DNA of 64,000 bases from Candidatus Omnitrophota bacterium (GTDB taxonomy: Bacteria; Omnitrophota; Gorgyraeia; B26-G9; JBDRCZ01), in the NCBI GenBank assembly GCA_043821285.1, contig JBDRCZ010000029.1, positions 14,959 through 78,958 on the forward strand, written 5' to 3'. A model generated the notes under the pieces. The model made no database searches and was not told the DNA's origin. It saw only the letters and a list, made by a program, of their open reading frames with translations. The position numbers and the translations under genes are program-made. Shown here one piece after another: positions 1 to 16,731 of this stretch (position 1 is the stretch's first letter; every line of letters begins with the position of its first letter).

Positions 1-3000
1 AGAGCTGCCTGATCACTCTTTCTTGCCTTGCGGCTATTTTCTCCGCTCAATGTTACCGTACGTAGGGCTTTTAATATTTCTCCTTTTAATTGTCCTTTAA
101 GACCATCAGATAACATGCTAAAATGTTGCTTGATTAAGCCCTCAACTAAGTTAGTAATTTCATTTTTAAACGCAGTTGCCTCCTCCCGTGCCTGGTTAAA
201 ACTCTGGTCAAGTATTGGCTGTTCAACACCAATCTCCTGTAATCGTTCTCTGCCTGCTTGGTAAAATTCTTGCTCTGCCTCGACCCAATCCCTCCCCTGC
301 ACGGTTAAATCAGAATCAGACAAGGTCTGGGCTAATCCTTCAATCCGCCAGTTGAGCCATGCTTCTAAGTCCTTAAATACCCTTTCTTTCTTACTCCTAA
401 CAACTCTCCCATTCCTAATTGTCATCACAATTATTTCACGCTCAGGGTCTTGTTCTAAATCCCTCCTTAATTCATCTACAGTTAAACTGGCATATCCGGT
501 TAAGGTATTTAAACGCACCTGATAAGGATTTTCCTGTTTTTGGTCATTTTCATCAAAAGCATTATTAGCAAAATGCGCTAAAGTTGAGTTACGCATTGCC
601 CGGGCATATTTTTTAATATAGGGATCTCGCAAACCACTGTTTAAAATTTTCTCAAGCTGCTGGTCAGCCTTTTGCATGGCCTCTTTTAAATCAGCGATTA
701 AAACCCGCAGCACGCGTTTGTCAAAATTAATACCCTGCGGCCTAAGTCCTAATTCTACTAACAGATTAAGCATTTGCTCTGCTTCTGCGTCATCAGCATT
801 GGCTATTTTTTCTAAATAAGCTGCTGGGTCTGGTTGCTGGCTAAGTTCTATTAATAGATTATGCACCTTTTTGTATTCTGGTTTTATCGCTAAATTTTTC
901 TGATCAGGATTGTTTATAAATGCATTCTTTTCCTGTTCAGTGATCATTTGATTATTCACTAAGGCAGTTAATAAATCTCCTAATAGTTCTTGCCTTTGTT
1001 GAGGTGAATCGTTATGCTCTTGAACATCTTTCTTATACTGCTTTATTCTTCCTTTTGCATCAGCAACCACCTGATCTAAACTATCCAAGGCTGCCTGGTG
1101 GGTATATTGGTTTAATTCATTAATCAGATTTTCAAATTGATGCTCTGATATTAGTAAATTGGGTAATTGCCTGGCTTCGGTAATTCTATTTTTAAGCTGT
1201 TCCTTAAGCGAGTCTTTTCCTGTACCCGACACCTGATCTAAATTAGACTGCTCAATAAAATCAGCAAAACCAGCCAACTGTTCATCGCGTACTTTTAGTC
1301 TCTCAATCGAAGGACTTGCCGGGTTAATCAGTCTGGCAATTGTCTGAGCTATCTGGTCATTACCTAAGTCTGCTAAAGTGAGTGGTTCATTCTCTGTTTC
1401 TCCGTCATTATCTTCTGGCCCGGCCTTAGATTCAGCCGCGGCATTTTGCTTGGTAATCAGGGCTTCAATTCTGGAAGCATATTCTTCCGGTAAATTTAGT
1501 TCATTTAATACCGGTAAAACGCCTAAATTTTTACTGGTTTGATTTAAAAGGGTATCAACGCTAATTGCTGCTTCGCCTTGGACATAGTATTTGTACATCT
1601 TTTTAGCCTGCCAGCCAAAAGAGAGTGGAGTAGATAATAAAGAAAGGGCCAGCATTGGGAAAGGCAAAGAAGAACCAGCACTAAATATTGAACTGATTAT
1701 TGGGATACTAATTGGCATGCTAACAAGACCAAGGATTATGGCTAAGCTTCCCAAAGGCAGTGCCAGTGAAAGTATATCTGTTCCAAGTTTCCTCACGAAT
1801 GATCCTTTTATTTTGTCCCACACTTCGTCTAACCATGATTTTTCGCCTTTGTTTCTAATCTGTTGAGAAAGCATTATTGCTCTTTGAAAATCACCGCTCT
1901 TCCATGCACTCGCAATCTCTGCATTCAGTTCCGCACGTTTTGCATTCAGTTTCGCGCGTTCATTTTGTTTGTCTGCTGCAAATAATCTATGTCCTCTTAA
2001 ATTATCTTCCATACCTAATACTGCCACCTGTGCTGACTGGGTGCGAGCAGTTTTAAATCCCGCCCAGGATAAACCCGCGCCTTCCTGCTGCCTTCCTGCT
2101 GCTTCCAGTTTTAATAAGGTATATGCTAATGCCTCAACATTTGCTGAAGTAGCTATCGCGGGATTTTGCTGCGTAAGTAGTGCCTCTGCCCGGGCTTCAA
2201 ACTCAACAAAACTCATCCTCTGCCCAGACTGTTCTACTGCTTTCTTAGAAAGGCCAAGGGTATTTGTAAAAGCAAACTGCTGGACACGGCTTAACGCAAA
2301 CCCGTCCTTTTTCACTTGCCGTCTTTTCTGCCAGCTTTCTATCGGCGCCTTATATACCTTGGGTTTGAGCATGGCTGCGGCAATCTCTTCTGGCTGGCTT
2401 AAAAATGTCTGGCTAAGCAGAGAACTTTCCTCAACCTCTTGTTTTGCCTCGTCAGTTAAGAAATTATACACTGTGGCCGCAATAATAAGATTATCATAAC
2501 TTACCTCAGGATTAAGCATGCCCAAGACAAAATCTATTACCTCTTCTTTATCTTGTGTATCATAATCCGCAAACGCGGAAGAATTAATAATATTTTCTGA
2601 TATAAAATCTAATATAGTTTGTGCCTGTTGGGGAGTATTTAGGGAAACGCCTTGCAAGGCTAAATCTTCTAACACCTGAGTAACGGGCGAGTCATTTGGC
2701 AGGAACACAGCTACGCGGGATAAAAGCTCAGGTGACCCACGGGTGCCATTTGAAAGAACGATCCGGTCAAAGTTTTTAAAAAGCTTGGCCTTTTCTGCTA
2801 AAGTAAGCCTGGCCTCCCCGCCTTTTCTGCGGGCTTGGTCAATCTGCTGGATAACATGAACCACGGTCCTATTCTGGCTGACATCATTGGCATGACTAAT
2901 TTCCTCGGATAAAATCCGGTCTAAGAACCGCCGGTGTTTGGCAACCGCAGTAATTTCTCGGATATTTACTGCCTCTCTAAAAGAGATATCTCTTCTCGCT

Positions 3001-6000
3001 TGTATTTTTTGATATCCTTCTGAGGTAAGGATACTCTCAGCAATATCCCTTAAAAGCGCGGCCCGGCTCTTTACCGCCTTGCCATAGTCACCTTTAGCAA
3101 TAAGGTCAAACAATTCCCGGGAAGAAGAAGCCACTCCCCGGATTGTCTGCTCAATAATCTCTTCCGCATTACGCGCATGATGACTTAATCTGAGATTAAC
3201 CTCAGCAGTATCTTTTTTATCTAAAATTGCTCTTAATTCTGCTTCTAAACTATCACGCTTTTGTTCTGAGGTTGCCAAACGCATCATGTGCTTTACTGGC
3301 TCAATCACCCCGCGGGAATAAGCGGCCTCGCGGATATGATGTACTAAGGCTGCAGAAAGCTCTTCACTTTGCATAAGTTCGGCATTGCGGATAAGTTCTT
3401 TTGCTTGGTCTTTTACTTCCCGGCCATAAGTTACTTGCATGCGTTTTAGTTCTTGCAGTCTTACCCCACTGGCGGTTTTTTCTCTTAAGGCACCTTTCAG
3501 ATAAAATACCCTTCTTAGACCTTCTGCTACATTTCTCCTGTTTCTGCCAATACCCTGATAAAGTTCTGATCTGGTCCAATTATGTCCATCCGCAATAACT
3601 AAATCAACAACGCCTATATAATCTATACCTGTTGCCCCTTTAACATTAGAAAGAATTATTCGATTTTGAGCATCATTAGCAAGGTCGCCGACTTTTTTCT
3701 CAGAGGCTGAAGTATTAATAAGCTCTATTGTTTCACCCAGATTATCATTCAAAAATTTTCTTACCAACTCATACATTACCGGATCTTTGACTAAGATTAA
3801 TACCCCCCGGCCATTTCTCCGGCTACTTACTATCTCACGGATAATATTTCGTATGATTGCTGGTTCTGATGCAAATCCACGCGTAACTACATCTTTATAT
3901 GTTGACGGGGTTATCTTAGCAACCCCTTTACCTAAGTGCAGCATATGCATAAGCTCAACTGTTTCTAAAGTACCAGATGCACCTAAAACCGAGGCCTGGC
4001 GGCCAAACATGCCTAATACCTCAGCAACGGTTGATTGGGAAGATGACTTACTATAAAATAATTTGTTCCGATCAACAATATCCGGACCATTTGCAGACTC
4101 TTTAGCATATAAAGCCGCAATAAAATACCGGTCACTAAACACCCGGTCCTCAGCAATATTTCCATTCTCAACCGGTTTAATCTCTTTGTCTTTTACATCA
4201 TATGTCTCTTGTTTCTCGGCAAACCTGGCATCAAAATATGCCTTAGCTGTTCTTTCCTTAATATTATGGGAGTTGATTATTTCCAGTGCCTTGCCATTTA
4301 AGCAATACTCCCCCCGATCCCGATAAACATAAGCATGTTCTTCTTTACGTGCCTCCGCAATATCCTGCGCTCTACCAATTTTTCCTTTTTCCGGCACACC
4401 TATTTCTTTTTGAAATATCGTATCTAATGCTTTTTTTGCATGAAATGCCGCCTCAATAAATTCTTTTTCTAACAGCAGCGATGTTTCAGAAGTAATATAA
4501 GTTACTTTACTGGAAAAAGGAATATGAAACTCATCAAATCTAACTACATCCTGCATGGCTAAGGCATCGCACAGCCGCTGATTTTTGCTTAAGCTTAAAA
4601 ACCCTAATCTGGTCTGGTCAACAACCACAATTTTATCCGGTGATAATAAAACATCAACCAGACCCTGTTCATTTCTCTCCGTATAATATTTATTGCCATC
4701 TTTTAATTCATAACCAAAAATGTCAACTAACTCCTGTAATTTAATTGATCCTTTTCCTCCATGCGCTTTATCACCCGCAAGCACGGTCTGTTCTGCTTCT
4801 CCGGTTTTTACAACCAGCAGTTGATTTAAACTCTTGCCCAGTGCCTTGGCTATCTCCCCTCTGACCAACATCTCCATAATAAAGCCTAAGGTCTTACCAC
4901 CACCAACTGCCTGATAAACACTATTTTCTTTTAACAGTTCTACAACCATCTTAATCTGGGCTGTAGATCTTTCTACATCCAGCAGGCCGGTTAACTCCTC
5001 CTTTGTTACATCCCGCCCCTGTTTCTTAAGCTCTAATTTTTTCGCTTCAATCAAATCCGCATGCGCCTTTTCAAAAACTATTCTTAATACTAAGCCGGTT
5101 AATCCTTCGACCATTTTTTCCCCACGGCCCGTAATTTCTCGCACCCTTTCTTGAACCGCGTCTTTGCTAATTTTCCCTTCAACAAGGATATCACGGTTAA
5201 ACTCAGTAATAATCTCGCCTTCTGCGCCTTGTAATTGTACCTTACCAGTCTCTTTATCAACAAAAACCTCAATCTCGCCAGATTCTAATCCCTGCACCAC
5301 TGCCTCAATCTCTTTACCCATCTTTCGCATGCCGCTGACAATCTCTAATTCTGGATAGAGCTTTATGAGCATTTCCACACCCATGTTCATTCTGGCAGAG
5401 CCAGCGATTAATTGAATTTCTTGTTTACCTAATATTCCTTCAACCCTGCGGTCAATTTGCTTATTTAATTCATTTATCCCCTGATTTAGCCGCTCAATTT
5501 GTTTATCAATCAGACGAACACTATTATCAAACGCTTCAATTCCCGTCCCGTTTTCTAAGCTATCTCTTCTTTCTGCTAACTGTCTACGTTTATCTCTTAG
5601 ATTATCAATTTTATTTAACAATTCATTTTTTTCCCGAATAAGCGGACTATGCTCTAATTCCTGTCTTGCGGTTTTTACTCTATCAATCAAATTACTAATC
5701 TCCGCATCAGCTACCCGGTCTAATTGTCTGATATAGGCATCTATAATATAGGTGCTTATATTTCGCGTGCTTAATTTCTCAGAAGTTAGCCCTTGCTTTA
5801 TGTTGCGCTCTAAGAGTGCTTGACCGCCAATGATTGTGGCCTCAGAAAAACCCTGGGGATTTTCACCAATTAATGCGTTTATATCCTTTAATATTTCTAA
5901 GTTGACCCGGTCCAGGGACTGGCTGATACTTTGCTGGCGTAAGGCAAGCTGCTGCTGGGTCTCACCCTTTAAATATGCCTGCTGATACTCTTGTTGTTTT

Positions 6001-9000
6001 TGATAATAATCGCGCTGTGTCTGGGTAAGTGTCTCAGCACCTTCTGCACTTAATCTTTTTTCAAGCCCTCGGGCATTGTAACGGTGTTCTTGCACATAGT
6101 CTACCAAGTGTCTTACATATTTTGTATCCTTAGGATTAATCCGATATACCTCCATTAACCCTTCAGTTATATTGCCCTCCAATCTATACGGCTCAAAGAC
6201 CTGCATAGATGCCTGCATCCTTAATGCCTCAGTAAGCTCTACTCTTAAAGGCGCCCGTTCACCAGAAGGCAGTTTTACCTCAACCAATACCTGATCCCCG
6301 ATCTGAACATCTTTATCTAACAGGCGCCGGGCATCCTGATCACCGACTAATTGTACCTCTTTACCTAATTTTTCTCGCAGAGTATCGCTTAAAGGTTTAA
6401 TTTCATTGTGGGCTCTAATCAAATTTCCTAACTCTGACAAGTTTAAAGAATTAACTCCCTTTATAAGTTCTGCACCAAAAGAATTTTCCACGCCTAATGA
6501 CTCTCTTCTTAGAGAATTTCTAAAAATAATTTCGGCATTAGAAGAATCTCCTGCTAATGCCTTACCGGCTAATTCCCAGTGAATATCGCTTCTGCCTTCA
6601 GGTTTGCCTTCTGCCAGCCATATACTATGAGCAAGAAATTTTTGTAAGTTATCTTTTTTGCCATCAGCCGCATATTCGCTTAAGTATTCTAACCCTAAAC
6701 GGATATCCCTGCCCACGGTAGCAAGATTGCCTCGGCTAAAATGCTGGGTAATCATATCTGTTTGCTGCTCCACAAAACCCTGTTCTCTTAAATAGTCTGC
6801 CACTACAGGCACTAATTCGCCCACCCTTTCTAAAACCTGCATTTCTAAATCTGCACCCTGACGTAATGCCTCTCTTAAACTCCCGTATTTCCTTACCGTG
6901 GCAAAATTCTTCACAGTTTTCTCGGAATTTATCTTGCCATCAGCTTCTCTTACGGTAAGCAACTCAGCGTTTAGCCGGTTTAGGTTTGGCTTCATAAATA
7001 GTAATGCCCAACCTAAAGCAAAACGTTCTCCTTCAGAAAATGCCATACCACTATATCTGGCTAATGCCTGCTCAAACCCACCCGCGGCCTGAATATCAGC
7101 CGCAGTCAATGCTCCACTTACAACATCTGCATACGCACCAGCTCTGCGCACACTCTGCAAACCCCGTTCAATACCGGTAACAAAACCCGAAACAAAGGTC
7201 AAAGATTTTGCCTCAAGCACTAAACCAGAGGCAATACTTAGGAAAGAATTATTTGCGGCCATGCCTCGGGCAAGCGAGCCTTCGATACGTGCCATTGGCC
7301 GGCCAATAAATGCGCGCGCTTTATTATATGCGCCTTCTCCAGCCTTAGCACGGGTGAGTGCTTGGGGAGATTTGCTAAGTATTTCATCAGAATGGCGCAT
7401 CATCACCTTAATCATCGGCCCCATAAATTTCCCTTCTTTTGCTGCAGCAAACCAGCTTATTGCCCGGTTAGCAGTAAAAAAGCTTCCCCAATCCAAAGGT
7501 AAATACCCCTGTTCCTCAGTCCCTTCTCTAAACCATGTATATTCATCTCCAATCTTAAACTGCCAAGAGGAGTTGATTAATTCTTGATTTCCCGTAAAAC
7601 GTCCAACTATTCTATCCGCTCCCGTTTCTAACACATGTATCCCCGTATCCCAGACAGGGCTTGCCATATTCATAACCATAGAAACAAACGGCCATTTTAT
7701 TGCCCCTTCTAACGCATCCAGGGCTAATTGGTTTATGCCATCACCTGTAAACGGGGTCTTGCTTCTCCTTAATAAACCAGTTTGTAATTCCGCAGTCTCT
7801 ACCCTGCTATAATCTCGCACGTGACCACCAATACCTTTCACAAACTCCATACCCTGCGGTGAAATTGCCCATTTAAATAGTATTCCAAGAAACGCACCTT
7901 TTGCAAATGCTGCGACAAATTCACCGGGAGTTGAACTGGCATTTAACCCGCCAGTAAGATAACTCCAAGCAATATTTCCAAATCCTCCAAGCGAAGCGAC
8001 GGTAAGACCTCCAATCACACGAGAGTTAAGTGTACCACTATAAATACCCTTATACGCACTTTCTCCAAGCCTATAAACTCTCGATAGACGAGTGCTATTA
8101 GAAATCCCCTGGTACGCTGTTGTCCCAAGATGATAGACTCTGGCCAGACGAACTTGACTTACCGCAGGATTAGCTGCACTCATCGCAGCAGTTGCTGCTT
8201 GAGATACATTTGCCACGCCGCCAAAAACACCCAATAATCCGCCAAGAATAAATCCGCCGATGAACCCTTTGGTATAAGTGTGTACATTTAACGGGTCAAA
8301 ATGAAATCCGGCATCTTTATTAATCCGGCCTTGATCATCAGTCTCATAATCCCAGCCAAAATAGCTCTTGGCACTAAGTTCTAAAGCCCCTAAAAATCCT
8401 TTATCTTCTCCCTGGCTAAACATCTGCTGGGCTAAGACATTATTCACCAACATATCAACATTACCAAAAACCGTACCCAAGTTAAGCCCTGCTCTTAAGC
8501 TGTGCAAGCCTATGCCCTTAAGTCCCTGGCTAGCCGTCTGGGTAAGCAAAACATTTGCCCCAGATAAGCCAAGCACACTCAGCGTAGTTGTGGCAAATAT
8601 TGCAATATTTTGTTCAAAGCTTAAAAATTGGCGATTATTAACCACAAAAGACGCAGCATTTGCGGCTGCAACTGCCGTAACTCCCATACTTGAAGCTGCA
8701 CCTACTCTGCTTGCAACAGGGGCTATTTTTGTTGCTATTGGCTCAAGTTTTTCCGCGAATCTGGCTGCTAAGGAAAATTTACCAGTAAGCTTCGTACCAC
8801 CCTTAGCAAGTAAAGTGCCGCCTTTAGCAAGCAAAGTACCGCCTTTTAATAACCCCCCACCAACAAACAGCAGTGGTACAGTAGTCGTCAAATCAACCCA
8901 ATCAAGAACACTGTATCCTCTAAAATCCAAAACATCCCCTTTATTCGGCAAAACTAAAGGAATAACAAAACTCATCGGGTTATGGGTCAATTGCATCCGG

Positions 9001-12000
9001 GTCATGGCAAAATCCATTCTTGCTTTAGCAAGAACAATATTTTGGTCTAATGTTTGTATCCTCTGTGCATATCCATTACTATTAATAATCATTGCCGCAG
9101 TATTACGTGCATCAGGGTCCTTAATCTTCTCTAATATTGCTGCTGGGGATATATCTCTAACCCTATCTACATGAGCTGGAGTTACCTCCCCGGGACTGCT
9201 GATGTAAGCCACAGGATTATCTCCATCACTATTTATTCTGGGGTCAATATAAACGTCACTCTCATTCATACCTACGAATTTATCGATATCAATCCCTTGC
9301 TTTGCTAATTGTTGTAATAATTCCACATAAACTCTGTCTTTTTGCTGATTTAAACTTGCCTTTTCACCAACCCCGCCAAAATAATCTCCAGTATCATTAG
9401 TCCCTACCGCAGATTCCCGGATACGTTTTTCAATCCCTGCCTGCAGTATTGCGCCAATATCCGCAAGAAGCTGTATATCTTGAATAAAATTATACAGGGT
9501 TGGATTGTTCGTGTAAAGCTCCTGCATTTTATTAGAATATGCATCCCGGGCACTTTTATAGTCTATGACAACTTGAGAACGTGCTTGAAGCTGCTCCGGC
9601 GTAAACCTCACAAGTTCCTCCGAAGAAAGGTCAAAGCCTGGGTTATCTATATATAAATTAAGCCGCACATCATACATGGTTCTGGCATGCTGCAGGTCTT
9701 GCCATACTGCATATGTATTTCCATAATTAGTCTTTAGCTCGTTTACTTTGTCATTATACTGTTTAGATTTATTCATATAATTATCTACCGCCGCATTATT
9801 ATATTTATTCTCATCACTATTCCAATACGTGGCAATCGCATCCTGCACTTGTCCATTTATTTTACGCACATCAAATAAGGCCTCGTAAGTTTCCAAAGAC
9901 GCCTTTGCTAAATTAACATCTGCAAAATGTGCGTCGTCTTGCTCCTGAATAAGTGCCCGAACTGTAGGATCATCCTTATATTGCGCTAATACATCTGCAT
10001 AATTCTGCTCCTGTTTCATCAGCTCCTCTATGGACTGATAAGTTTTCGGCATATTTTCCTTAATCATCTTTCTTGTCTGGCACTCCTCACGTAACACCTC
10101 AATTGCCGGCCTTGCCGCGTCCAGTAACTCCGCAAGCCTGCCGCGAGAAAAAATTTCCGGAGTAGTTTCGTCTAATAAACCCATGTATGATAACGCAGAA
10201 TTGGCATTGAATTTTATCTTCTGCACATCATAAGAAATAAGTGGGCTCTCAATATCTATATGCATTACCCAAAAGCTACCTGGCTGGGCTGGAGCATCGC
10301 CGCATTCTGCCTTTTTAAGTACAATTATTCCCTGGGTTGGGTCTAAGGTGTCTAATTCGTCTAACGCCTTTTTATAAGTAGTACTATTACGCGTATCACC
10401 ATTAGCTATTGCGGCCTTATATCTTTCTTCAACTTCCCCCCTTAATTCAATATTGATAAGCAAAAAAGTATCAGGGCTTGTAAGGTCATCCAGTTCTGGA
10501 GCATAAGCGCCTGCTTTTTCTCCTTGCGTTATATAACGACCTGTGTTTTCATCAATTGTACCTGCTACAACAGGTATCTTCTCTCTTGCATCCTTCCATA
10601 ATTCTGCTATATCCCTTCCGCCTTCCTCTTCTGCAAAACCCCAAACTTTATCCCATGCATCGGTTATTGCCGCACTTGCTCCTTCAAGTACCTTTTGAGC
10701 TGATTCTGTTAAGTTATACCATGCCTGTGCAATCCCCTGTGGTTTTTCATAAGCTTCTCTCGCTAAGTCCTCAGTTCCCGATCCAATTGCTAATTTCCAC
10801 AAATTATCCGTTGCCTCATTAGCTAGTTCCATTAAATCTTTTACTGGTTTTGGCAAAGCTAACCCTAAGTTGTGTAATGCCTCACCAATTGGTCCAAGCC
10901 CACATACTAATTCTAATGCTCCCGGTCCATCCTCTGCTGCAGTTGGATATAACTTTGTTTGCAAGTCAGAAATTCTATTCTGTTCTTGCTGTAATAAAGG
11001 AAAGTTGGTAAAAAGATTACTTGTTAGCGGTTCTAACTTTTGCCTTAGACCATATAATATATTCACAAGCGGATCATTTGTATCAAGACCCTTAATCTCG
11101 ACTCTTCCATCTTCCGTTTGTATTATGTCATATCTATTAGTTATCTCTTCTTTTTTTTGATTAAAGAAATTCATTAAGTTATTTAACCCTGGAATAGTTA
11201 ACTCGGGCAGGTTTGGTGGTTTTGTCTGCTGTAAATAGGCGTTTTGCACTGCTGGCATACCAGTATTAGGATCAATAGGAGCGGCTGTCTGTGGATTTGT
11301 TGGACCAAATATTTGAGGTAATTGTGCCATAATGCCACCAACAACACCAGTTACACCATTTAACGTATGTATAAAGCTAACCTGCTCATCTAGAGATAAT
11401 TTTGATTGATTAGCCGGCGCTTCACTTGATTTACCAGCCGTAAAATAGCTATTATTTAAAGTTTCATCATCCAATAGTGGGATGTATCCCATATTGTCTA
11501 ACTCATAGGTCAAAGAACTTGGCCCCATAAATAAATTTTTCAACCCCTCCCACCCCGGGATATCTACTTGTGCTGCGGACATTGTTACGGGTATGTATCC
11601 TATGGAATCATCTTCTGATATGTATCCTAAATCCCAGGTATCTGTATCTATCGTCGTTTCAGTTAGCGGTGCAAAAAGCATTGCTCCTATGTCTAAAAAT
11701 GACGGCTCTTCCGGGCTCCAGGCTAATGTGTCCTCAGAAGCAACTGGAACATTGAATAAATCTACAAAATTTCTTGCCCCATCCAAAAGGGGATCTAAGG
11801 TAACTTGAGTTAAATCTATATTTGGCAGAGCTAAAGGTGATTGCGCCTCCTTATTAAGGTTATCCCAGACAAAGATATTTTCTTGAGGAGAAGGTGGCTG
11901 CTGGGGGTTATTGAATAAATTTAAAAAATTATTTGCAGCACTGGCCGCACCATTTAAAAAATTATCCCACCATGAAGTTTGCGGCGCTGTATTTGCATCC

Positions 12001-15000
12001 GTTGTGCCGGTGTCAGATGCATTATCTGTTGCCCCGGGTAAACTTGGATCATCAATCCCTGTTCCCCATGTAGTATCTCCTGTTGTTTGTCCGCTATGCT
12101 CTGCCATTGCCGCCGCCCATTTTGCTTTATTTTTAGCTACCTGTTCCGGGTCTACTTCATTTCCTGTCGTGTCCCCGCCAATCATCTTACCTTTCGTATC
12201 AAAATAAACTGTAACTCCGTTTAACACCTGCCGGCCGGAACCGTCTTTATTAAAATATATGTCCGCACCGCTCTTATGGTCTTTGGCATAAAAGGCCATG
12301 CCGTCTTCCGGGTCCAAATGGTAAGTCATCCATTTTGCCCCGGTAACATTCATTACAATAAATTCCGGATTACTATAGTCAAACGTGGATATCGTGCCTT
12401 GTTCATGGTCAATTAATTTTAGTCTCCGGTTAATATCATTCGCATCTCTTACATCTACGATAATACATCTACCTGTAACTTCATCCCCGCGGAAAACATT
12501 TATTGCCACGACCCCTTCTTGGCTCCAATCAAACACTGAGGTTGTGCCTTTTTCATGGTCAACCCGCTTAATCGTGCGCTCGGTCTGTGCGTCTTGATAC
12601 TCGGTCATACTAATCGGCAGGGTATTGCTGTCTCCATAGTAAACATCTATTTTAATTACCGCAGGATCACTGTGGTCGTAAATCCAGGTTTGGGTCGGGG
12701 TGATCATCTTTTCCCATTGGTTGGTTGCTCTATTTCTGTAAACCGTAGCAGTTATTTGGCCGGATGGGTTAATAATTGTTGATTGAAGGAGATTGGGATT
12801 AGTGTTGTTGTTATTAACATGAAACATAACATTGCCGTTTTGCTGTATAGTAAGCGGGGCATTACGGAAATCCGTTTGCAGGTTAACTGGCAGGGATAAG
12901 ATTATATTGTTTACTAAGTTAATATTGGAAATTAATGTATTCCTGTAAGTTGTATCATTCAAATTTTGCTGCACCGTAGCAATAGCCCGTTGCAGGTTTT
13001 GTCCCTGGTTTACATTAGTGTTAATCTGTGCGGCTACTACGGCTCTCACTGTCTCCCTGGGCACAAAACTGCCACTAGCAATTGCCGCAAGCTGTGCTGT
13101 GTCATTTACTGCATCATAAGGAGATATATATGCCCCGTTTTGTGCCGCGTTCATAAAAGCACCTTTGGCTGCGGCCCGGGCAATGTCTTGTGCCTGCTGG
13201 CTGTTCGGGTCCATGCCCTGGTTAATCAACTGCCGCATGGTTGCGTCCCAGGCCTGGTCACCAGCATAACCCGCAGTATCTGCTACTGGGATAGTTGCGC
13301 TACCACCACCATTATCATTACTGTCATCATCATCGTATAGATGACCACCGCCTCTTTCAATCTCATCTAATGCTGCTGCTCTCGCTACATAACCCGCTTC
13401 CTCATCTGATAACCCCTGTTGCTTAGCATAGTCCCATGCATCCTCTCCAGCATTTGCCCCTGCTGTTATCTGCATCTCTTGCTGAGTAAGTTTCCGGGAA
13501 TTGCCCTTGGCCTGGTCACTTAATACCTTGCCATCCCATAACCGGTTAAACTCCTTAGTGGTGAGTATCTTTTTCTCGCCATTATCAATAATCGTAACAT
13601 TATTGGAATCTATCCGGATTAATGTTACCCAGTGGCCTTCAAAGTGGATAATCACCGGCCGGTTAGTTTTAATTAAACTCTCCAGGTCCATTTCATAGCC
13701 GTCTAAATTAACCTGATATTTTGTCGCAATCATCTTTAAGGCATACATCGAGGTAAATACGTCTTGTCCGCGGATTACAACTTCTCCTTCCGCTAAAATA
13801 TCCTGCAGGATTAGTTCGTAAGCTAATCTTTGCTTATCCGTATCCTTCCCCTGTATATTAAGGAGAGCAGCTAAGGCATTGACCGCACAGTTAATAATAT
13901 TTATCACCGCATCCTTGGCCCAGTTAACCGCCTTGGAAATAAAGCTCGATACAATCTCACTTGCCGAGTATTTTGCACTAATCATGGCCTGGGCAATTGT
14001 TACCATTGACCGGTCAAGTTGAGTGGCAATCTTTAAGACATCTTCGGCGCTTACCATAAGCGATTTAAGTGCCAGAATAATCTCTTGGTCAGAATAATCT
14101 GCGTTTAACAGGGTGCGGTATATCTGATAATTACTAAAGGGAAGTTTTGCCTCTTTTATTGCGGCAATAATATCTGTGGCTGAGCGGTTGGCAGATTTAA
14201 GCAAGGCCGCTATTTCCACTAAGCCCTTACCCATCTGGGCAAAGCTGGTAATAATCTCGCTGTCCGTATATCCCTGCTGGAACATTTTTAAAACTAAGGC
14301 TTCCTGCCGGTAGTCTAATTTTATTAATGCGTGCATCATTACAAATGCTTCCTGCTGTTTTTGTTCTTCAATATTTTGCTCAGGTTTTACCCCTACCTTT
14401 CCAATTTCTGGCAGTACTTTATCCCGGTGCTGTTCGATTATTTCGCGTTTTGCCGCCTCTTCCTGCAAAAGCGATAATTTCTCCCGGTCTTCTCTTGTCT
14501 GTTCTCTGACTGGTCTTGAGATTAAACTCTCGGCCTCGTGTTCTGAATACCCGGCAGAAACCAATGCCTCATAAATCTCATCGGCAAAATACCCTTGTTT
14601 TAGCGCGGTTATTGCCACATCCCGGGCAGAATTACCGGATTTTTTAAGCAGGGTAATCATTGTGGTGAGGTCATAACCCGCAGCTCCCATACCTTTGATT
14701 GATTCTTTAATAAAACTAAGATTCGAACCAATACCGGCGGCATAATCCCGGGCAATTTTACTTTCGCTGCCCGCTTGCGGAAGAGAGAGTGTGTTTAGGG
14801 GGGAATAAGCGGTTTGGGTTATATCAATTTGTTCGGTTTTTACCCGCGGGGTGTTTTTGGTGAGTTCATCAAGAAGGTCTCTCTGTCCCTGTAGATAGCG
14901 AAAATCCGCAGCCAGGGAAAAATTGCTGTTGGTAAACAAAAATGCCTGAATTAATAATACGGTGATGAATTTAAACCATAATTTCTTTGTTATTATATTC

Positions 15001-15002
15001 AT
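1..15002 (-). CDS. giant multidomain secreted protein, 5' complete, 3' end beyond window (at least 5,000 aa). Order from N-terminus: signal peptide; ~33-aa helical repeats; C39-like peptidase domain (Ser at the Cys position); beta-rich repeats; Gly-rich hydrophobic/tandem-repeat region; SF2 DExH helicase core
   Basis: GGAGG then a 7-nt spacer then ATG at 15000-15002 on the minus strand. N-terminus MNIITKKLWFKFITVLLIQAFLFTNSNFSLAADF is signal-peptide-like. Manual translation of the reverse complement from 15002 down to base 1 met no stop, and the reading frame at base 3 matches the frame set at the ATG. Plus-strand ORFs across this span are all 268 aa or shorter and lie antisense. The minus-strand ORF is absent from the track, as expected if the track lists only frames closed by a stop inside the window. 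Internal motifs: GHWVTLIRIDSNNVTIIDNGEKK (C39 His region, about 13600-13700), VGGGKT (4888-4915), DEFH (4524-4535), QGIGRNRR (3536-3560). Confidence 0.8.
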   Translation of the reverse strand, partial: MNIITKKLWFKFITVLLIQAFLFTNSNFSLAADFRYLQGQRDLLDELTKNTPRVKTEQIDITQTAYSPLNTLSLPQAGSESKIARDYAAGIGSNLSFIKESIKGMGAAGYDLTTMITLLKKSGNSARDVAITALKQGYFADEIYEALVSAGYSEHEAESLISRPVREQTREDREKLSLLQEEAAKREIIEQHRDKVLPEIGKVGVKPEQNIEEQKQQEAFVMMHALIKLDYRQEALVLKMFQQGYTDSEIITSFAQMGKGLVEIAALLKSANRSATDIIAAIKEAKLPFSNYQIYRTLLNADYSDQEIILALKSLMVSAEDVLKIATQLDRSMVTIAQAMISAKYSASEIVSSFISKAVNWAKDAVINIINCAVNALAALLNIQGKDTDKQRLAYELILQDILAEGEVVIRGQDVFTSMYALKMIATKYQVNLDGYEMDLESLIKTNRPVIIHFEGHWVTLIRIDSNNVTIIDNGEKKILTTKEFNRLWDGKVLSDQAKGNSRKLTQQEMQITAGANAGEDAWDYAKQQGLSDEEAGYVARAAALDEIERGGGHLYDDDDSNDNGGGSATIPVADTAGYAGDQAWDATMRQLINQGMDPNSQQAQDIARAAAKGAFMNAAQNGAYISPYDAVNDTAQLAAIASGSFVPRETVRAVVAAQINTNVNQGQNLQRAIATVQQNLNDTTYRNTLISNINLVNNIILSLPVNLQTDFRNAPLTIQQNGNVMFHVNNNNTNPNLLQSTIINPSGQITATVYRNRATNQWEKMITPTQTWIYDHSDPAVIKIDVYYGDSNTLPISMTEYQDAQTERTIKRVDHEKGTTSVFDWSQEGVVAINVFRGDEVTGRCIIVDVRDANDINRRLKLIDHEQGTISTFDYSNPEFIVMNVTGAKWMTYHLDPEDGMAFYAKDHKSGADIYFNKDGSGRQVLNGVTVYFDTKGKMIGGDTTGNEVDPEQVAKNKAKWAAAMAEHSGQTTGDTTWGTGIDDPSLPGATDNASDTGTTDANTAPQTSWWDNFLNGAASAANNFLNLFNNPQQPPSPQENIFVWDNLNKEAQSPLALPNIDLTQVTLDPLLDGARNFVDLFNVPVASEDTLAWSPEEPSFLDIGAMLFAPLTETTIDTDTWDLGYISEDDSIGYIPVTMSAAQVDIPGWEGLKNLFMGPSSLTYELDNMGYIPLLDDETLNNSYFTAGKSSEAPANQSKLSLDEQVSFIHTLNGVTGVVGGIMAQLPQIFGPTNPQTAAPIDPNTGMPAVQNAYLQQTKPPNLPELTIPGLNNLMNFFNQKKEEITNRYDIIQTEDGRVEIKGLDTNDPLVNILYGLRQKLEPLTSNLFTNFPLLQQEQNRISDLQTKLYPTAAEDGPGALELVCGLGPIGEALHNLGLALPKPVKDLMELANEATDNLWKLAIGSGTEDLAREAYEKPQGIAQAWYNLTESAQKVLEGASAAITDAWDKVWGFAEEEGGRDIAELWKDAREKIPVVAGTIDENTGRYITQGEKAGAYAPELDDLTSPDTFLLINIELRGEVEERYKAAIANGDTRNSTTYKKALDELDTLDPTQGIIVLKKAECGDAPAQPGSFWVMHIDIESPLISYDVQKIKFNANSALSYMGLLDETTPEIFSRGRLAELLDAARPAIEVLREECQTRKMIKENMPKTYQSIEELMKQEQNYADVLAQYKDDPTVRALIQEQDDAHFADVNLAKASLETYEALFDVRKINGQVQDAIATYWNSDENKYNNAAVDNYMNKSKQYNDKVNELKTNYGNTYAVWQDLQHARTMYDVRLNLYIDNPGFDLSSEELVRFTPEQLQARSQVVIDYKSARDAYSNKMQELYTNNPTLYNFIQDIQLLADIGAILQAGIEKRIRESAVGTNDTGDYFGGVGEKASLNQQKDRVYVELLQQLAKQGIDIDKFVGMNESDVYIDPRINSDGDNPVAYISSPGEVTPAHVDRVRDISPAAILEKIKDPDARNTAAMIINSNGYAQRIQTLDQNIVLAKARMDFAMTRMQLTHNPMSFVIPLVLPNKGDVLDFRGYSVLDWVDLTTTVPLLFVGGGLLKGGTLLAKGGTLLAKGGTKLTGKFSLAARFAEKLEPIATKIAPVASRVGAASSMGVTAVAAANAASFVVNNRQFLSFEQNIAIFATTTLSVLGLSGANVLLTQTASQGLKGIGLHSLRAGLNLGTVFGNVDMLVNNVLAQQMFSQGEDKGFLGALELSAKSYFGWDYETDDQGRINKDAGFHFDPLNVHTYTKGFIGGFILGGLLGVFGGVANVSQAATAAMSAANPAVSQVRLARVYHLGTTAYQGISNSTRLSRVYRLGESAYKGIYSGTLNSRVIGGLTVASLGGFGNIAWSYLTGGLNASSTPGEFVAAFAKGAFLGILFKWAISPQGMEFVKGIGGHVRDYSRVETAELQTGLLRRSKTPFTGDGINQLALDALEGAIKWPFVSMVMNMASPVWDTGIHVLETGADRIVGRFTGNQELINSSWQFKIGDEYTWFREGTEEQGYLPLDWGSFFTANRAISWFAAAKEGKFMGPMIKVMMRHSDEILSKSPQALTRAKAGEGAYNKARAFIGRPMARIEGSLARGMAANNSFLSIASGLVLEAKSLTFVSGFVTGIERGLQSVRRAGAYADVVSGALTAADIQAAGGFEQALARYSGMAFSEGERFALGWALLFMKPNLNRLNAELLTVREADGKINSEKTVKNFATVRKYGSLREALRQGADLEMQVLERVGELVPVVADYLREQGFVEQQTDMITQHFSRGNLATVGRDIRLGLEYLSEYAADGKKDNLQKFLAHSIWLAEGKPEGRSDIHWELAGKALAGDSSNAEIIFRNSLRRESLGVENSFGAELIKGVNSLNLSELGNLIRAHNEIKPLSDTLREKLGKEVQLVGDQDARRLLDKDVQIGDQVLVEVKLPSGERAPLRVELTEALRMQASMQVFEPYRLEGNITEGLMEVYRINPKDTKYVRHLVDYVQEHRYNARGLEKRLSAEGAETLTQTQRDYYQKQQEYQQAYLKGETQQQLALRQQSISQSLDRVNLEILKDINALIGENPQGFSEATIIGGQALLERNIKQGLTSEKLSTRNISTYIIDAYIRQLDRVADAEISNLIDRVKTARQELEHSPLIREKNELLNKIDNLRDKRRQLAERRDSLENGTGIEAFDNSVRLIDKQIERLNQGINELNKQIDRRVEGILGKQEIQLIAGSARMNMGVEMLIKLYPELEIVSGMRKMGKEIEAVVQGLESGEIEVFVDKETGKVQLQGAEGEIITEFNRDILVEGKISKDAVQERVREITGRGEKMVEGLTGLVLRIVFEKAHADLIEAKKLELKKQGRDVTKEELTGLLDVERSTAQIKMVVELLKENSVYQAVGGGKTLGFIMEMLVRGEIAKALGKSLNQLLVVKTGEAEQTVLAGDKAHGGKGSIKLQELVDIFGYELKDGNKYYTERNEQGLVDVLLSPDKIVVVDQTRLGFLSLSKNQRLCDALAMQDVVRFDEFHIPFSSKVTYITSETSLLLEKEFIEAAFHAKKALDTIFQKEIGVPEKGKIGRAQDIAEARKEEHAYVYRDRGEYCLNGKALEIINSHNIKERTAKAYFDARFAEKQETYDVKDKEIKPVENGNIAEDRVFSDRYFIAALYAKESANGPDIVDRNKLFYSKSSSQSTVAEVLGMFGRQASVLGASGTLETVELMHMLHLGKGVAKITPSTYKDVVTRGFASEPAIIRNIIREIVSSRRNGRGVLILVKDPVMYELVRKFLNDNLGETIELINTSASEKKVGDLANDAQNRIILSNVKGATGIDYIGVVDLVIADGHNWTRSELYQGIGRNRRNVAEGLRRVFYLKGALREKTASGVRLQELKRMQVTYGREVKDQAKELIRNAELMQSEELSAALVHHIREAAYSRGVIEPVKHMMRLATSEQKRDSLEAELRAILDKKDTAEVNLRLSHHARNAEEIIEQTIRGVASSSRELFDLIAKGDYGKAVKSRAALLRDIAESILTSEGYQKIQARRDISFREAVNIREITAVAKHRRFLDRILSEEISHANDVSQNRTVVHVIQQIDQARRKGGEARLTLAEKAKLFKNFDRIVLSNGTRGSPELLSRVAVFLPNDSPVTQVLEDLALQGVSLNTPQQAQTILDFISENIINSSAFADYDTQDKEEVIDFVLGMLNPEVSYDNLIIAATVYNFLTDEAKQEVEESSLLSQTFLSQPEEIAAAMLKPKVYKAPIESWQKRRQVKKDGFALSRVQQFAFTNTLGLSKKAVEQSGQRMSFVEFEARAEALLTQQNPAIATSANVEALAYTLLKLEAAGRQQEGAGLSWAGFKTARTQSAQVAVLGMEDNLRGHRLFAADKQNERAKLNAKRAELNAEIASAWKSGDFQRAIMLSQQIRNKGEKSWLDEVWDKIKGSFVRKLGTDILSLALPLGSLAIILGLVSMPISIPIISSIFSAGSSLPFPMLALSLLSTPLSFGWQAKKMYKYYVQGEAAISVDTLLNQTSKNLGVLPVLNELNLPEEYASRIEALITKQNAAAESKAGPEDNDGETENEPLTLADLGNDQIAQTIARLINPASPSIERLKVRDEQLAGFADFIEQSNLDQVSGTGKDSLKEQLKNRITEARQLPNLLISEHQFENLINELNQYTHQAALDSLDQVVADAKGRIKQYKKDVQEHNDSPQQRQELLGDLLTALVNNQMITEQEKNAFINNPDQKNLAIKPEYKKVHNLLIELSQQPDPAAYLEKIANADDAEAEQMLNLLVELGLRPQGINFDKRVLRVLIADLKEAMQKADQQLEKILNSGLRDPYIKKYARAMRNSTLAHFANNAFDENDQKQENPYQVRLNTLTGYASLTVDELRRDLEQDPEREIIVMTIRNGRVVRSKKERVFKDLEAWLNWRIEGLAQTLSDSDLTVQGRDWVEAEQEFYQAGRERLQEIGVEQPILDQSFNQAREEATAFKNEITNLVEGLIKQHFSMLSDGLKGQLKGEILKALRTVTLSGENSRKARKSDQAA
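8796..8860 (-). repeat. in-frame 21-nt tandem repeat (about 2.5 units) encoding (LLAKGGT)n within the giant gene
   Basis: accacccttagcaagtaaagt / gccgcctttagcaagcaaagt / accgcctttt... on the plus strand. Confidence 0.7.
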
Positions 15003-16416: not shown

Positions 16417-16731
16417 TTAGGTAGGTGTGTTCCGGTACTTTCTCATATAAGCACGCATGTATTCCCGGTGTTGTTTTTTTCGTTTGATGCGGTAGGCCTT
16501 TATCTTTTCCGGATGCTTCTTACGCCATTTTCTTAATTGCTCACGGCGCATATTCTGCCAGTGGGGATCACTGCTTTGGCTATATTTAAAATAATCGGGA
16601 TTTTTCATGCGCCAGTTTGCTAAATTAAGCAGGTGCCGTTCATGCTGGCATTTTTTTCTGGTACAGACTTTTTGATGGCGTGGATGATACTGGCTTGGTT
16701 TAAACCTCTTCCCGCATATTCGGCAAATCAT
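16417..16731 (-). CDS. basic CxxC zinc-ribbon protein, hypothetical
   Basis: 104-aa ORF starting MICRICGKRF with a later Cys cluster, then a highly Lys/Arg-rich tail. Confidence 0.4.
   Translation of the reverse strand: MICRICGKRFKPSQYHPRHQKVCTRKKCQHERHLLNLANWRMKNPDYFKYSQSSDPHWQNMRREQLRKWRKKHPEKIKAYRIKRKKQHREYMRAYMRKYRNTPT

Follow-up and report, generated by a model that had tools for sequence, protein, structure and literature searches.

The 64,000-nucleotide stretch of DNA analysed here (the window) encodes on its minus strand the beginning of a giant protein with a peptidase-like domain near its N-terminus, and raises the question of whether this domain retains a catalytic nucleophile and, if so, which bond it might cut. 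The giant ORF starts at an ATG at 15000-15002 and reaches the left end of the window without a stop codon, the window holding its first 5,000 codons (3..15002, minus strand). Their translation is identical to the first 5,000 residues of a 7,803-aa protein from a Candidatus Omnitrophota MAG (NCBI MFH1776504.1), already annotated in NCBI as "cysteine peptidase family C39 domain-containing protein" and recovered at 100% identity (P0001) in an exhaustive search of representative sequences. N-terminal C39 domains in the giant proteins of Omnitrophota ('Archaeovorins') have already been published (West-Roberts 2023, bioRxiv 10.1101/2023.11.21.568195), and an architecture cluster with PF03412 has been described among giant proteins (bioRxiv 10.64898/2026.06.07.730766). 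For the C39 domain, found close to a predicted signal peptide, a possible role in cleaving the giant protein was proposed, with multiple products suggested (West-Roberts 2023). Neither report names catalytic residues or a cleavage site, and neither uses the terms 'double-glycine', 'cleavage site' or 'leader'.

A C39 domain near the start of a giant protein

The window protein belongs to the type described by West-Roberts 2023, being an Omnitrophota protein of 7,803 residues with a C39 domain close to a signal-like N-terminus; the SecA/DEAD-like part of that description is matched only weakly. A region with 'GGGKT' and 'DEFH' is present and gives a weak Pfam match to Helicase_C at residues ~3720-3823, and its SecA-like identity found no confirmation in Pfam. 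Hydrophobic segments lie at residues ~2246-2381 and 4406-4443. Read from the sequence, residues 1-32 (14907..15002, minus strand) resemble a signal peptide, MNIITKKLWFKFITVLLIQAFLFTNSNFSLA with the putative cut before AD, and comprise a basic n-region, a hydrophobic h-region and an S-L-A c-region; a K-L-W-F-K...[SA]-W-A pattern is kept in orthologues. The earlier description of a giant protein with a signal-peptide-like start is supported, and the N-terminus is probably exported and its signal cleaved. A helical short-repeat region (residues ~100-346; 13965..14705, minus strand), likewise read from the sequence, leads into the peptidase. It is built of recurring [GA]-[YF]-[ST]-x-x-[ED]-[IV] units that are conserved in orthologues, and it has no match in Pfam.

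Residues 347-497 (13512..13964, minus strand) form a C39-family, papain-fold peptidase domain. The first-pass annotation had recognized a C39 architecture here from a peptide that the minus strand does encode, in frame with the giant ORF (residues 412-494, of which GQDVFTSMYALK represents residues 412-423), and this call was borne out by profile, alignment and structural evidence. Pfam Peptidase_C39 (PF03412) matches significantly, at 44.9 bits (E=1.3e-11) against a curated gathering score of 22, and still scores 38.5 bits in a scan of the 5,000-aa translation; the match spans only positions 45-127 of the 133 in the profile and begins at T417. The domain contains HWVTLIRID and IIDNG motifs. 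A family profile built from 39 sequences found the C39 domain of PCAT1 in the PDB (E=1.8e-10), with single-sequence phmmer searches of the PDB giving marginal matches only, and hhalign against the verified N-terminus of CvaB returned a probability of 96.4%. An AF2 model of the domain, ending at residue 505, has a pLDDT of 94.2 and a pTM of 0.89 (a single-sequence model with a pLDDT of 43.8 was discarded). Solved C39 folds are matched by this model in Foldseek, with the double-glycine protease LahT150 (6mpz) ranking best (E 1.7e-6, TM 0.71-0.73), followed by the C39-like domain (CLD) of HlyB (3zua) and then ComA and PCAT1; the top matches 6mpz, 3zua, 5xe9, 3k8u and 4ry2 all have a probability of 1.00 and TM scores of 0.6-0.73.

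A word-index search with the 166-aa domain returned no homologues, and the set used for conservation came from the exhaustive search of representatives clustered at 50% identity. It comprises 131 domain copies related by descent, and the conservation and motif counts given below are not counts of independent events.

The predicted catalytic residues

The predicted nucleophile is Cys372 (TGT, 13887..13889, minus strand), within I-I-N-C-A-V-N-A-L. Its equivalence to the classical nucleophile rests on hhalign, which pairs it with Cys32 of CvaB, and on its place in the secondary structure, since in the AF2 model it opens helix α1 (helix 33-44 in model numbering). Cys occupies this column in 124 of the 131 copies; the remaining seven, all paralogous copies, carry Ser or Thr, and the window protein is not among them. 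The protein as a whole has 14 Cys in 7,803 residues, and Cys372 is the only one within residues 1-845. His457 (13632..13634, minus strand), in E-G-H-W-V-T-L, aligns with His99 of PCAT1 in the profile alignment and with His105 of CvaB by hhalign, and is His in 129/131 copies. Asp473 (13584..13586, minus strand), in T-I-I-D-N-G, aligns with PCAT1 Asp115 and CvaB Asp121, and the column is acidic in 121/131 copies (105 Asp, 16 Glu). By the alignments and the strand positions in the AF2 model, His457 and Asp473 sit on neighbouring β-strands. The oxyanion-hole Gln expected six residues before the Cys is absent, the position being V366 in an unconserved column with G, T or S elsewhere in the family. 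This is a weak criterion, because in the structure of LahT150 the Gln lies 4.3 Å from the oxyanion and its role has been questioned (PMC6363468). Cys372, His457 and Asp473 make up a complete conventional triad, and the domain is predicted to be catalytic.

A different nucleophile had been proposed at first. T-S-M was placed at the position of the catalytic Cys, with Ser418 (13749..13751, minus strand) replacing it, so that the domain would be a serine-type variant or else a module that only binds, as the C39-like domain of HlyB is. Non-catalytic domains of this kind do exist, that of HlyB (3zua) being among the Foldseek matches, Ser418 is strongly conserved (Ser in 123/131 copies, Thr in 8/131), and a few paralogous copies truly have Ser or Thr at the nucleophile position. 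The alignment itself was nevertheless wrong. T417-S418-M419 (codons 13746-13754) fall at about position 45 of the profile, whereas the nucleophile lies near the profile's N-terminus. T417-S418 pair with T56-N57 of PCAT1 in the profile alignment and S418 pairs with T65 of CvaB in hhalign, which places Ser418 some 33-36 residues past the nucleophile of both proteins. Ser418 corresponds to the 'T-x' in the GT(S/N) segment that classical C39 domains have, lies just ahead of a later helix (80-89 in AF2 model numbering), and is non-catalytic by alignment. The interval 13480-13900 first delimited does include the codon of Cys372, but the alignment on which the Ser reading was based began downstream of it. 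With Cys372 at the place of CvaB Cys32 at the N-terminus of helix α1, and with the Cys/His/Asp triad conserved, replacement of the catalytic Cys by Ser418 is extremely improbable. The question of whether orthologues conserve Ser or Cys at the nucleophile is likewise settled in favour of Cys.

A double-glycine-type motif behind the domain

A short distance past the domain lies a motif of the double-glycine leader type, L505-A516 (13455..13490, minus strand), with residues L505(-12), T, Q, Q, E509(-8), M510(-7), Q, I, T513(-4), A, G515(-2) and A516(-1). The scissile bond is predicted between A516 and N517. The motif is marked out by a family logo, by its spacing from the domain, by a PSSM and by the point at which homology ends. 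The family consensus, L(-12)-[ST]-D-x-[EQ]-[ML](-7)-x-x-[ILV](-4)-[RK]-G-[AGS], is located ~22 residues past the domain. In the logo (n=69), Leu occupies -12 in 42/69 sequences and a hydrophobic residue in 65/69, and Glu or Gln occupies -8 in 40/69; the remaining columns are S/T(-11), D(-10), M/L(-7), I/L/V(-4), G(-2) and A/S/G(-1). Positions -12, -11, -10 and -8 played no part in the selection of the sequences. Position -4 is Thr here and Ile, Leu or Val in most homologues, with Thr found also in P0019 and P0029. In the published consensus for ComA and LahT leaders, Leu(-12)-X3-Glu(-8)-Leu(-7)...Gly-Gly/Ala/Ser, the residues at -4, -7 and -12 sit in a hydrophobic groove of the peptidase (PMC6363468). 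The motif in the giant protein matches this consensus at the level of sequence.

The position of the motif is fixed relative to the domain. Counted from the domain's final conserved Leu, it peaks at +22/+23, in 55/121 copies against a background of 2.8%, and a four-position rule finds it in 75/121 copies against 6.1%. A PSSM trained without the window protein ranks the L505-A516 site first in the 7,803 residues, at 14.3 bits with the next site at 6.3, and first again when all six frames of the 64-kb window are translated, with a runner-up there of 9.8 bits that has no Gly. When 7,803-aa sequences are shuffled, the best score anywhere in them has its 95th percentile at 13.9 bits, barely below 14.3, and the motif owes its significance also to its occurrence at the expected position. 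The same scans revealed no further leader-like GG sites, of the kind that cleavage into several pieces or substrates cut in trans would involve, in the 7,803-aa protein or in the six frames of the window. The multiple products suggested by West-Roberts 2023 contrast with the one leader-like site that the PSSM scan finds in this protein.

Conservation between giant proteins stops at the same place. The window protein (P0001) and a second giant of 7,815 aa (P0007) can be aligned by BLAST only over residues 1-515 and 1-527, respectively, and among 598 HSPs that span the domain, the density of end points falls ~9-fold just past the motif site.

A binding role deserves consideration at this point. 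The domain might hold or chaperone a leader-like helix, or another nascent segment, during export, as has been proposed for the HlyB CLD, and its triad would then be vestigial. The HlyB CLD (3zua) is a close fold match, and the giant-protein domain lacks the classical oxyanion Gln at -6. The hallmark of a CLD, however, is loss of the catalytic Cys, while in this family the Cys is retained in nearly all copies, in Cys-poor proteins and together with the His and Asp. Conservation also extends to the small G-[AGS] residues at -2/-1, as a scissile site would predict, and the need for the oxyanion Gln has been doubted from work on LahT (PMC6363468). A purely binding function is accordingly judged unlikely, and cleavage is the favoured reading.

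Cleavage could also be directed mainly in trans, at other copies of the giant protein, at secreted proteins with GG motifs or at prey proteins, with the adjacent motif serving as a pseudo-substrate, an auto-inhibitory element or an intermolecular site. Classical C39 domains cut separate peptides (PMC6363468), the C39 domain StbD-CT cuts GyrB/ParE at GG in trans (bioRxiv 10.64898/2026.05.07.723447), and West-Roberts 2023 left cleavage of other substrates possible (bioRxiv 10.1101/2023.11.21.568195). Some copies of the domain also lack an adjacent motif: the second and third copies in multi-copy proteins, with tails of the type 'AERAPP...', keep the Cys and are without the motif, so the domain need not always cut an adjacent site. 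Against a mainly trans role stand the low scores of all other leader-like sites, both in the protein and in the six-frame window, and the combination of a fixed +22 spacing with homology that ends exactly at the motif, for which a cis site is the simplest explanation. Action mainly in trans is a real but clearly lesser possibility. Cis and trans activities are compatible with each other. Covariation of motif and nucleophile is uninformative here, because the motif persists in three of the four Ser-variant copies whose sequence extends far enough downstream.

A proposed self-processing cassette and its relatives

The computed domain identity and triad, the motif with its constant spacing and the stop of homology there argue for cis processing, in which residues 1-~516 would form a self-processing N-terminal cassette whose catalytically complete domain would cut the cassette off from the remainder. 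This reading, drawn from sequence features, is held to be rather likely. The cassette comprises, in order, the signal-like N-terminus, the helical repeats, the C39 domain, a linker of ~10 residues and the double-glycine element. In the proposed sequence of events, the N-terminus would be exported by Sec. Residues -12 to -4 may then fold as a short amphipathic helix and dock in the hydrophobic leader groove of the C39 domain, by analogy with the LahT150-leader complex, thereby delivering G515-A516 to the active site. Cys372 would cut after A516, most likely intramolecularly, and part the cassette from the variable remainder of ~7,290 residues. The polarity would be that of bacteriocin processing (leader - GG - cargo), but with the peptidase belonging to the 'leader'. 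A precedent for obligate cis auto-processing at a GG site by a C39 domain exists in StbD-CT (bioRxiv 10.64898/2026.05.07.723447). Export to an oxidising compartment, should it occur, may compromise the free catalytic thiol of the domain; auto-processing of StbD requires reducing conditions (bioRxiv 10.64898/2026.05.07.723447).

The peptidases of PCAT/AMS bacteriocin exporters (Pfam and MEROPS C39; LahT150 6mpz, ComA 3k8u, PCAT1 4ry2, CvaB) share the fold (Foldseek E ~1e-6 to 1e-4) and a Cys-His-Asp triad at equivalent positions. Their substrate logic is also alike, Leu(-12)-X3-Glu(-8)-Leu/Met(-7)...hydrophobic(-4)...Gly-Gly/Ala/Ser, and in both the recognition helix precedes the bond to be cut. 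Unlike these enzymes, the giant protein has no ABC transporter part; Pfam scans of residues 1-5000 and 5001-7803 gave no ABC_membrane or ABC_tran matches, and a PCAT-type fusion was rejected on this ground. The exporter peptidases are cytoplasmic, whereas the giant-protein domain is probably extracytoplasmic because it follows a Sec-type signal-like sequence, and its predicted site lies in its own polypeptide, 22 residues past the domain. In place of the 'D/E-C-G-x-A-C' of PCAT/AMS peptidases, the nucleophile motif reads 'N-C-A', with no second Cys and no Gln at -6, and an insertion of ~10 residues bears a conserved Asp401. The HlyB-type CLD (3zua) shares the fold as well but differs in the catalytic position, CLDs being without the Cys that is present here as Cys372.

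StbD-CT is likewise a C39 domain in a large secreted protein and auto-processes in cis after Gly-Gly in a flexible linker adjoining the domain (bioRxiv 10.64898/2026.05.07.723447); sequence similarity to it is weak but detectable in the His...W-x-G half. Its GG site precedes the catalytic Cys by ~25 residues, and cutting there frees the peptidase as toxic cargo, whereas the site predicted here follows the domain on its C-terminal side and would leave the peptidase attached to the conserved N-terminal cassette. As a polymorphic toxin, StbD is C-terminal, is paired with an immunity protein and has two Cys that form a redox-sensitive pair; in the giant protein the domain is N-terminal (347-497 of 7,803) and has a single Cys. 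The giant ORF is preceded by a 104-aa basic Cys-rich ORF and a gene for a ROK-family protein, and none of the upstream genes resembles an immunity partner. A Tox-PL-C39 polymorphic-toxin tip of the StbD-CT/Cpe1 type was rejected on account of the N-terminal position and the lack of an immunity-like upstream neighbour.

The window protein carries a conventional cysteine peptidase domain of the C39 family, already annotated and described as a recurrent N-terminal feature of Omnitrophota giant proteins. What is added here is a specific predicted site, at G515-A516 before N517, the presence in most homologues of G-[AGS] ~22 residues past the domain, and the coincidence of this predicted site with the end of conservation between giant proteins. 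A wider reading, on which opinion is evenly poised, takes the N-terminal ~516 residues, with a lineage-specific signal peptide, the helical repeats, the C39 peptidase and a double-glycine site in cis at the C-terminal end, as a portable cassette for export and processing that removes itself and is common to otherwise unrelated Omnitrophota giants; one cut after G-[AGS] would free an extracytoplasmic cargo of several thousand residues. If so, this would be C39 processing in cis at a C-terminal site, which is undescribed for PCATs or StbD-type toxins, and it would give a concrete answer to whether and where the giant proteins of Omnitrophota are cut. Published work on the giant genes leaves a single chain versus processing undecided (bioRxiv 10.1101/2023.11.21.568195; bioRxiv 10.64898/2026.06.07.730766), and a single predicted auto-processing site makes the choice testable by mutagenesis and by looking for the neo-N-terminus in existing proteomes.

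The C39 domain and its nucleophile

The minus-strand reading frame that begins with the ATG at 15000-15002 is stop-free to the left end of the window, and its translation equals residues 1-5,000 of P0001, a giant protein of 7,803 aa (NCBI record MFH1776504.1) recovered at 100% identity by exhaustive protein search. P0001 is extremely depleted in cysteine (14 per 7,803 residues), with Cys372 the sole cysteine among residues 1-845. The first-pass annotation placed a C39-like domain in this protein with Ser, within a T-S-M sequence, at the catalytic Cys position. The C39 domain is upheld and the Ser-for-Cys feature is attributable to misalignment. The quoted peptide (GQDVFTSMYALK...) is present at residues 412-494 on the minus strand, with T417-S418-M419 at 13746-13754. 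The excised region matches Pfam Peptidase_C39 at 44.9 bits (E 1.3e-11), and a scan of all 5,000 translated residues gives 38.5 bits (cut-off 22 bits). A1, a profile built from 39 homologous domains, matches the PCAT1 peptidase domain (E 1.8e-10) as well as LahT150 and ComA. An AF2 model built with the A1 alignment (pLDDT 94.2, pTM 0.89) has as its best Foldseek match in the PDB the double-glycine protease LahT150 (6mpz; E 1.7e-6, TM 0.71-0.73), followed by the HlyB C39-like domain, ComA and PCAT1.

The Pfam match starts at profile position 45 with T417, whereas the nucleophile lies near the profile start, and T-S-M therefore cannot be the nucleophile. Alignment of the A1 profile with PCAT1 pairs T417-S418 with T56-N57, H457 with His99, and D473 with Asp115. 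The N-terminal half was placed by profile-profile alignment of A1 with the N-terminus of CvaB (96.4% probability, E 1.4e-9), a sequence checked beforehand by its 100% identity on E. coli plasmids with a cvaB annotation. Here IINCAVNALAALL lies opposite CvaB TAECGLACLAMIC, thus equating Cys372 with CvaB Cys32; His457 pairs with His105, Asp473 with Asp121, and Ser418 with Thr65. The catalytic residues of CvaB are Cys32, His105, and Asp121. The Cys372 codon (TGT, 13887-13889, minus strand) falls within the interval originally annotated, the reading of which began downstream of it. In the model, helix α1 starts with Cys372, His457 is first in a β-strand, and Asp473 is last in the next, the papain/C39 arrangement reported for LahT (PMC6363468). 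The residue at -6 from Cys372 is V366, in a variable column, so that the classical Gln is missing; the LahT150 structure casts doubt on the need for this Gln (PMC6363468).

The exhaustive search returned 154 matches at E≤1e-3; among 10 whose records were consulted are several proteins from Omnitrophota MAGs, many of which are partial. The domain typically lies 150-650 residues from the N-terminus of these homologues. Across 131 aligned, mutually related domain copies the nucleophile column holds Cys in 124, Ser in six, and Thr in one. The His column is His in 129/131, the Asp column has 105 Asp and 16 Glu, and Asn371 and Asp401 are conserved in 123 and 126 copies, respectively. Ser418 is itself conserved in 123/131, with Thr in the other eight, marking it as a structural residue that the family conserves. 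The domain of P0001 is thus almost certainly a C39 domain with an intact triad, and its reading as a Ser variant has next to no chance of being correct. True Ser-variant C39-like domains of the kind sought are the seven paralogous Ser/Thr copies found in the homologues P0029 (copy 2, residues 1114-1292), P0056, P0102, P0108, P0124, P0138, and P0143. These mostly keep His and Asp, and three of the four with sufficient downstream sequence carry a G-[AGST] motif.

A double-glycine site at the end of a conserved N-terminal unit

Directly after the C39 domain, the N-terminal alignment of orthologues contains a conserved LLDLQMRQIRGG followed by RG. Measured from L494, the last conserved Leu of the domain, the pattern [LIVMF]xx[LIVMF]xG[GAS] ends 18-30 residues downstream in 55 of 121 usable copies (2.8% of random windows from the same proteins), with a sharp peak at +22/+23. 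A four-position rule is satisfied by 75/121 copies against a background of 6.1%, and many failing copies nearly match (e.g., AQAIRGA, ASKIFGS). The logo reads L(-12), S/T(-11), D(-10), E/Q(-8), M/L(-7), I/L/V(-4), R/K(-3), G(-2), A/S/G(-1), of which -12, -11, -10, and -8 lie outside the selection pattern. It matches the consensus published for ComA/LahT, Leu(-12)-X3-Glu(-8)-Leu(-7)...Gly-Gly/Ala/Ser, in which a two-turn helix sets -4, -7, and -12 in a hydrophobic groove ~20 Å off the active site (PMC6363468). The P0001 motif (13455-13490, minus strand) runs L505-T-Q-Q-E509-M510-Q-I-T513-A-G515-A516, then N517, with Thr (T513) at -4. A PSSM trained on other proteins, with P0001 left out, ranks L505-A516 top among all 7,803 residues (14.3 bits; runner-up 6.3; 95th percentile of shuffled maxima 13.9) and it also outscores every other site when the whole window is translated in six frames, indicating a single such site rather than many.

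Several homologues carry two or three C39 copies (P0010, P0022, P0026-P0031). A GG-type motif follows the first copy; later copies are without it, show tails that begin with 'AERAPP...' or 'S(N/R)(K/R)GPP...' (e.g., P0026 1522-1689), and form a distinct subtype. A separate subfamily (P0051, P0055, P0063-P0065, P0070, P0075, P0081, P0083, and others) has at ~+25 the variant '...(V/I)P(D/E)S(M/L)xAF(V/I)WG(S/N/D)(K/R)W', with Trp at -3, Gly at -2, and Ser/Asn/Asp at -1, which may reflect a changed cleavage specificity.

Homology also ends at this site. In BLASTP between P0001 and P0007, another giant protein (7,815 aa), only residues 1-515 and 1-527 align (36% identity), and nothing outside them passes E 1e-5. 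The homologues P0011 and P0019 give the same boundary plus one short match in the helicase region; outside the N-terminal cassette, BLAST detects similarity to other giant proteins nowhere else. Among 598 domain-spanning HSPs from 40 proteins, 136 end points lie within the six positions 0 to +5 of the site and 66 in the next 25, a ~9-fold fall. Together, alignment limits and HSP end points define a conserved unit of signal-like N-terminus, helical repeats, C39 domain, and GG-type site, which on sequence comparison is fused to variable cargo.

The short helical repeats (residues ~100-346; 13965-14705, minus strand) have the unit [GA]-[YF]-[ST]-x-x-[ED]-[IV]-[IVY]-x-[AS]-[LF], lack a Pfam match, and are kept in orthologues; the final unit is the first helix of the high-confidence C39 model. 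The signal-like N-terminus of the giant protein (14907-15002, minus strand) resembles that of the neighboring 1,292-aa ORF (22647-26525; N-terminus 26430-26525, minus strand) in which a Pfam scan found no match. Both share with homologues elsewhere the pattern (K/R)-x-W-[FIV]-K-x-I-A...F-L...[SA]-[WL]-A (e.g., MNIITKKLWFKFITVLLIQAFLFTNSNFSLA, MNNLTRTIWFKLIAIILVNAFLCMDISLAAG), which may be a lineage-specific export signal.

Remainder of the giant protein and its neighbors

Residues ~3350-3825 (~3530-4950, minus strand) contain a Walker-A-like 'AVGGGKTLG' and a 'DEFH' box, then a weak Helicase_C match (E 0.0078, under the Pfam cut-off). The region probably corresponds to the SecA/DEAD-like module known from Omnitrophota giant proteins, for which Pfam gave no confirmation. 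Past the window's left end, residues ~5480-7700 form long helical repeats (unit ~100-130 residues) with no match in a Pfam scan, and 'AENxxEALPxLRxxAxIELAKQxI' recurs in the C-terminal third. The upstream genes are ordinary chromosomal genes: Pfam identifies a ROK-family protein and AAA-type ATPases, and cysS, gltX, ispF, ispD, and radA, as assigned by reading translations, presumably come next. A strongly basic, Cys/His-rich 104-aa ORF (MICRICGKRFKPSQYHPRHQKVCTRKKCQHERH...; 16417-16731, minus strand), for which a Pfam scan gave no match, separates the giant gene from the ROK-family gene.

Proposed processing and known systems

The reading toward which we lean, with some reserve, is that the N-terminal cassette would be exported, the compartment being suggested by the signal-like sequence, that the C39 domain would accommodate the adjacent -12 to -4 helix in its own leader groove, and that Cys372 would cut after A516, parting the cassette from the ~7,290-residue remainder. 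That the C39 domain is a trans-acting protease, or the site a pseudo-substrate, is rather unlikely, though compatible with this in-cis reading. A role in binding only, like that of the C39-like domain (CLD), is quite improbable for a domain with Cys372, His457, and Asp473 in place. A C39 domain that obligatorily processes itself in cis at a GG motif is known from the CDI toxin StbD-CT (bioRxiv 10.64898/2026.05.07.723447), and StbD entries 8ssk and 8ssm are among the weak sequence matches. StbD requires reducing conditions for this step, although the P0001 domain has no counterpart to the second Cys found in classical C-G-x-A-C motifs. In StbD the GG site precedes the catalytic Cys by ~25 residues, and what is released as cargo is the peptidase; P0001, unlike StbD, has the polarity of bacteriocin processing.

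NCBI already names P0001 a "cysteine peptidase family C39 domain-containing protein" from Candidatus Omnitrophota, and such domains have been described before in proteins of this class, so that finding one here is ordinary. West-Roberts et al. reported a C39 domain close to a predicted signal peptide at the N-terminus of Omnitrophota giant proteins and proposed that it might cleave them. A 2026 preprint reports a PF03412 architecture cluster of 24 proteins (bioRxiv 10.64898/2026.06.07.730766); neither it nor West-Roberts et al. (bioRxiv 10.1101/2023.11.21.568195) mentions a double-glycine motif, leader, or cleavage site. The conserved in-cis double-glycine site, with the homology boundary located there, is a modest and testable addition.
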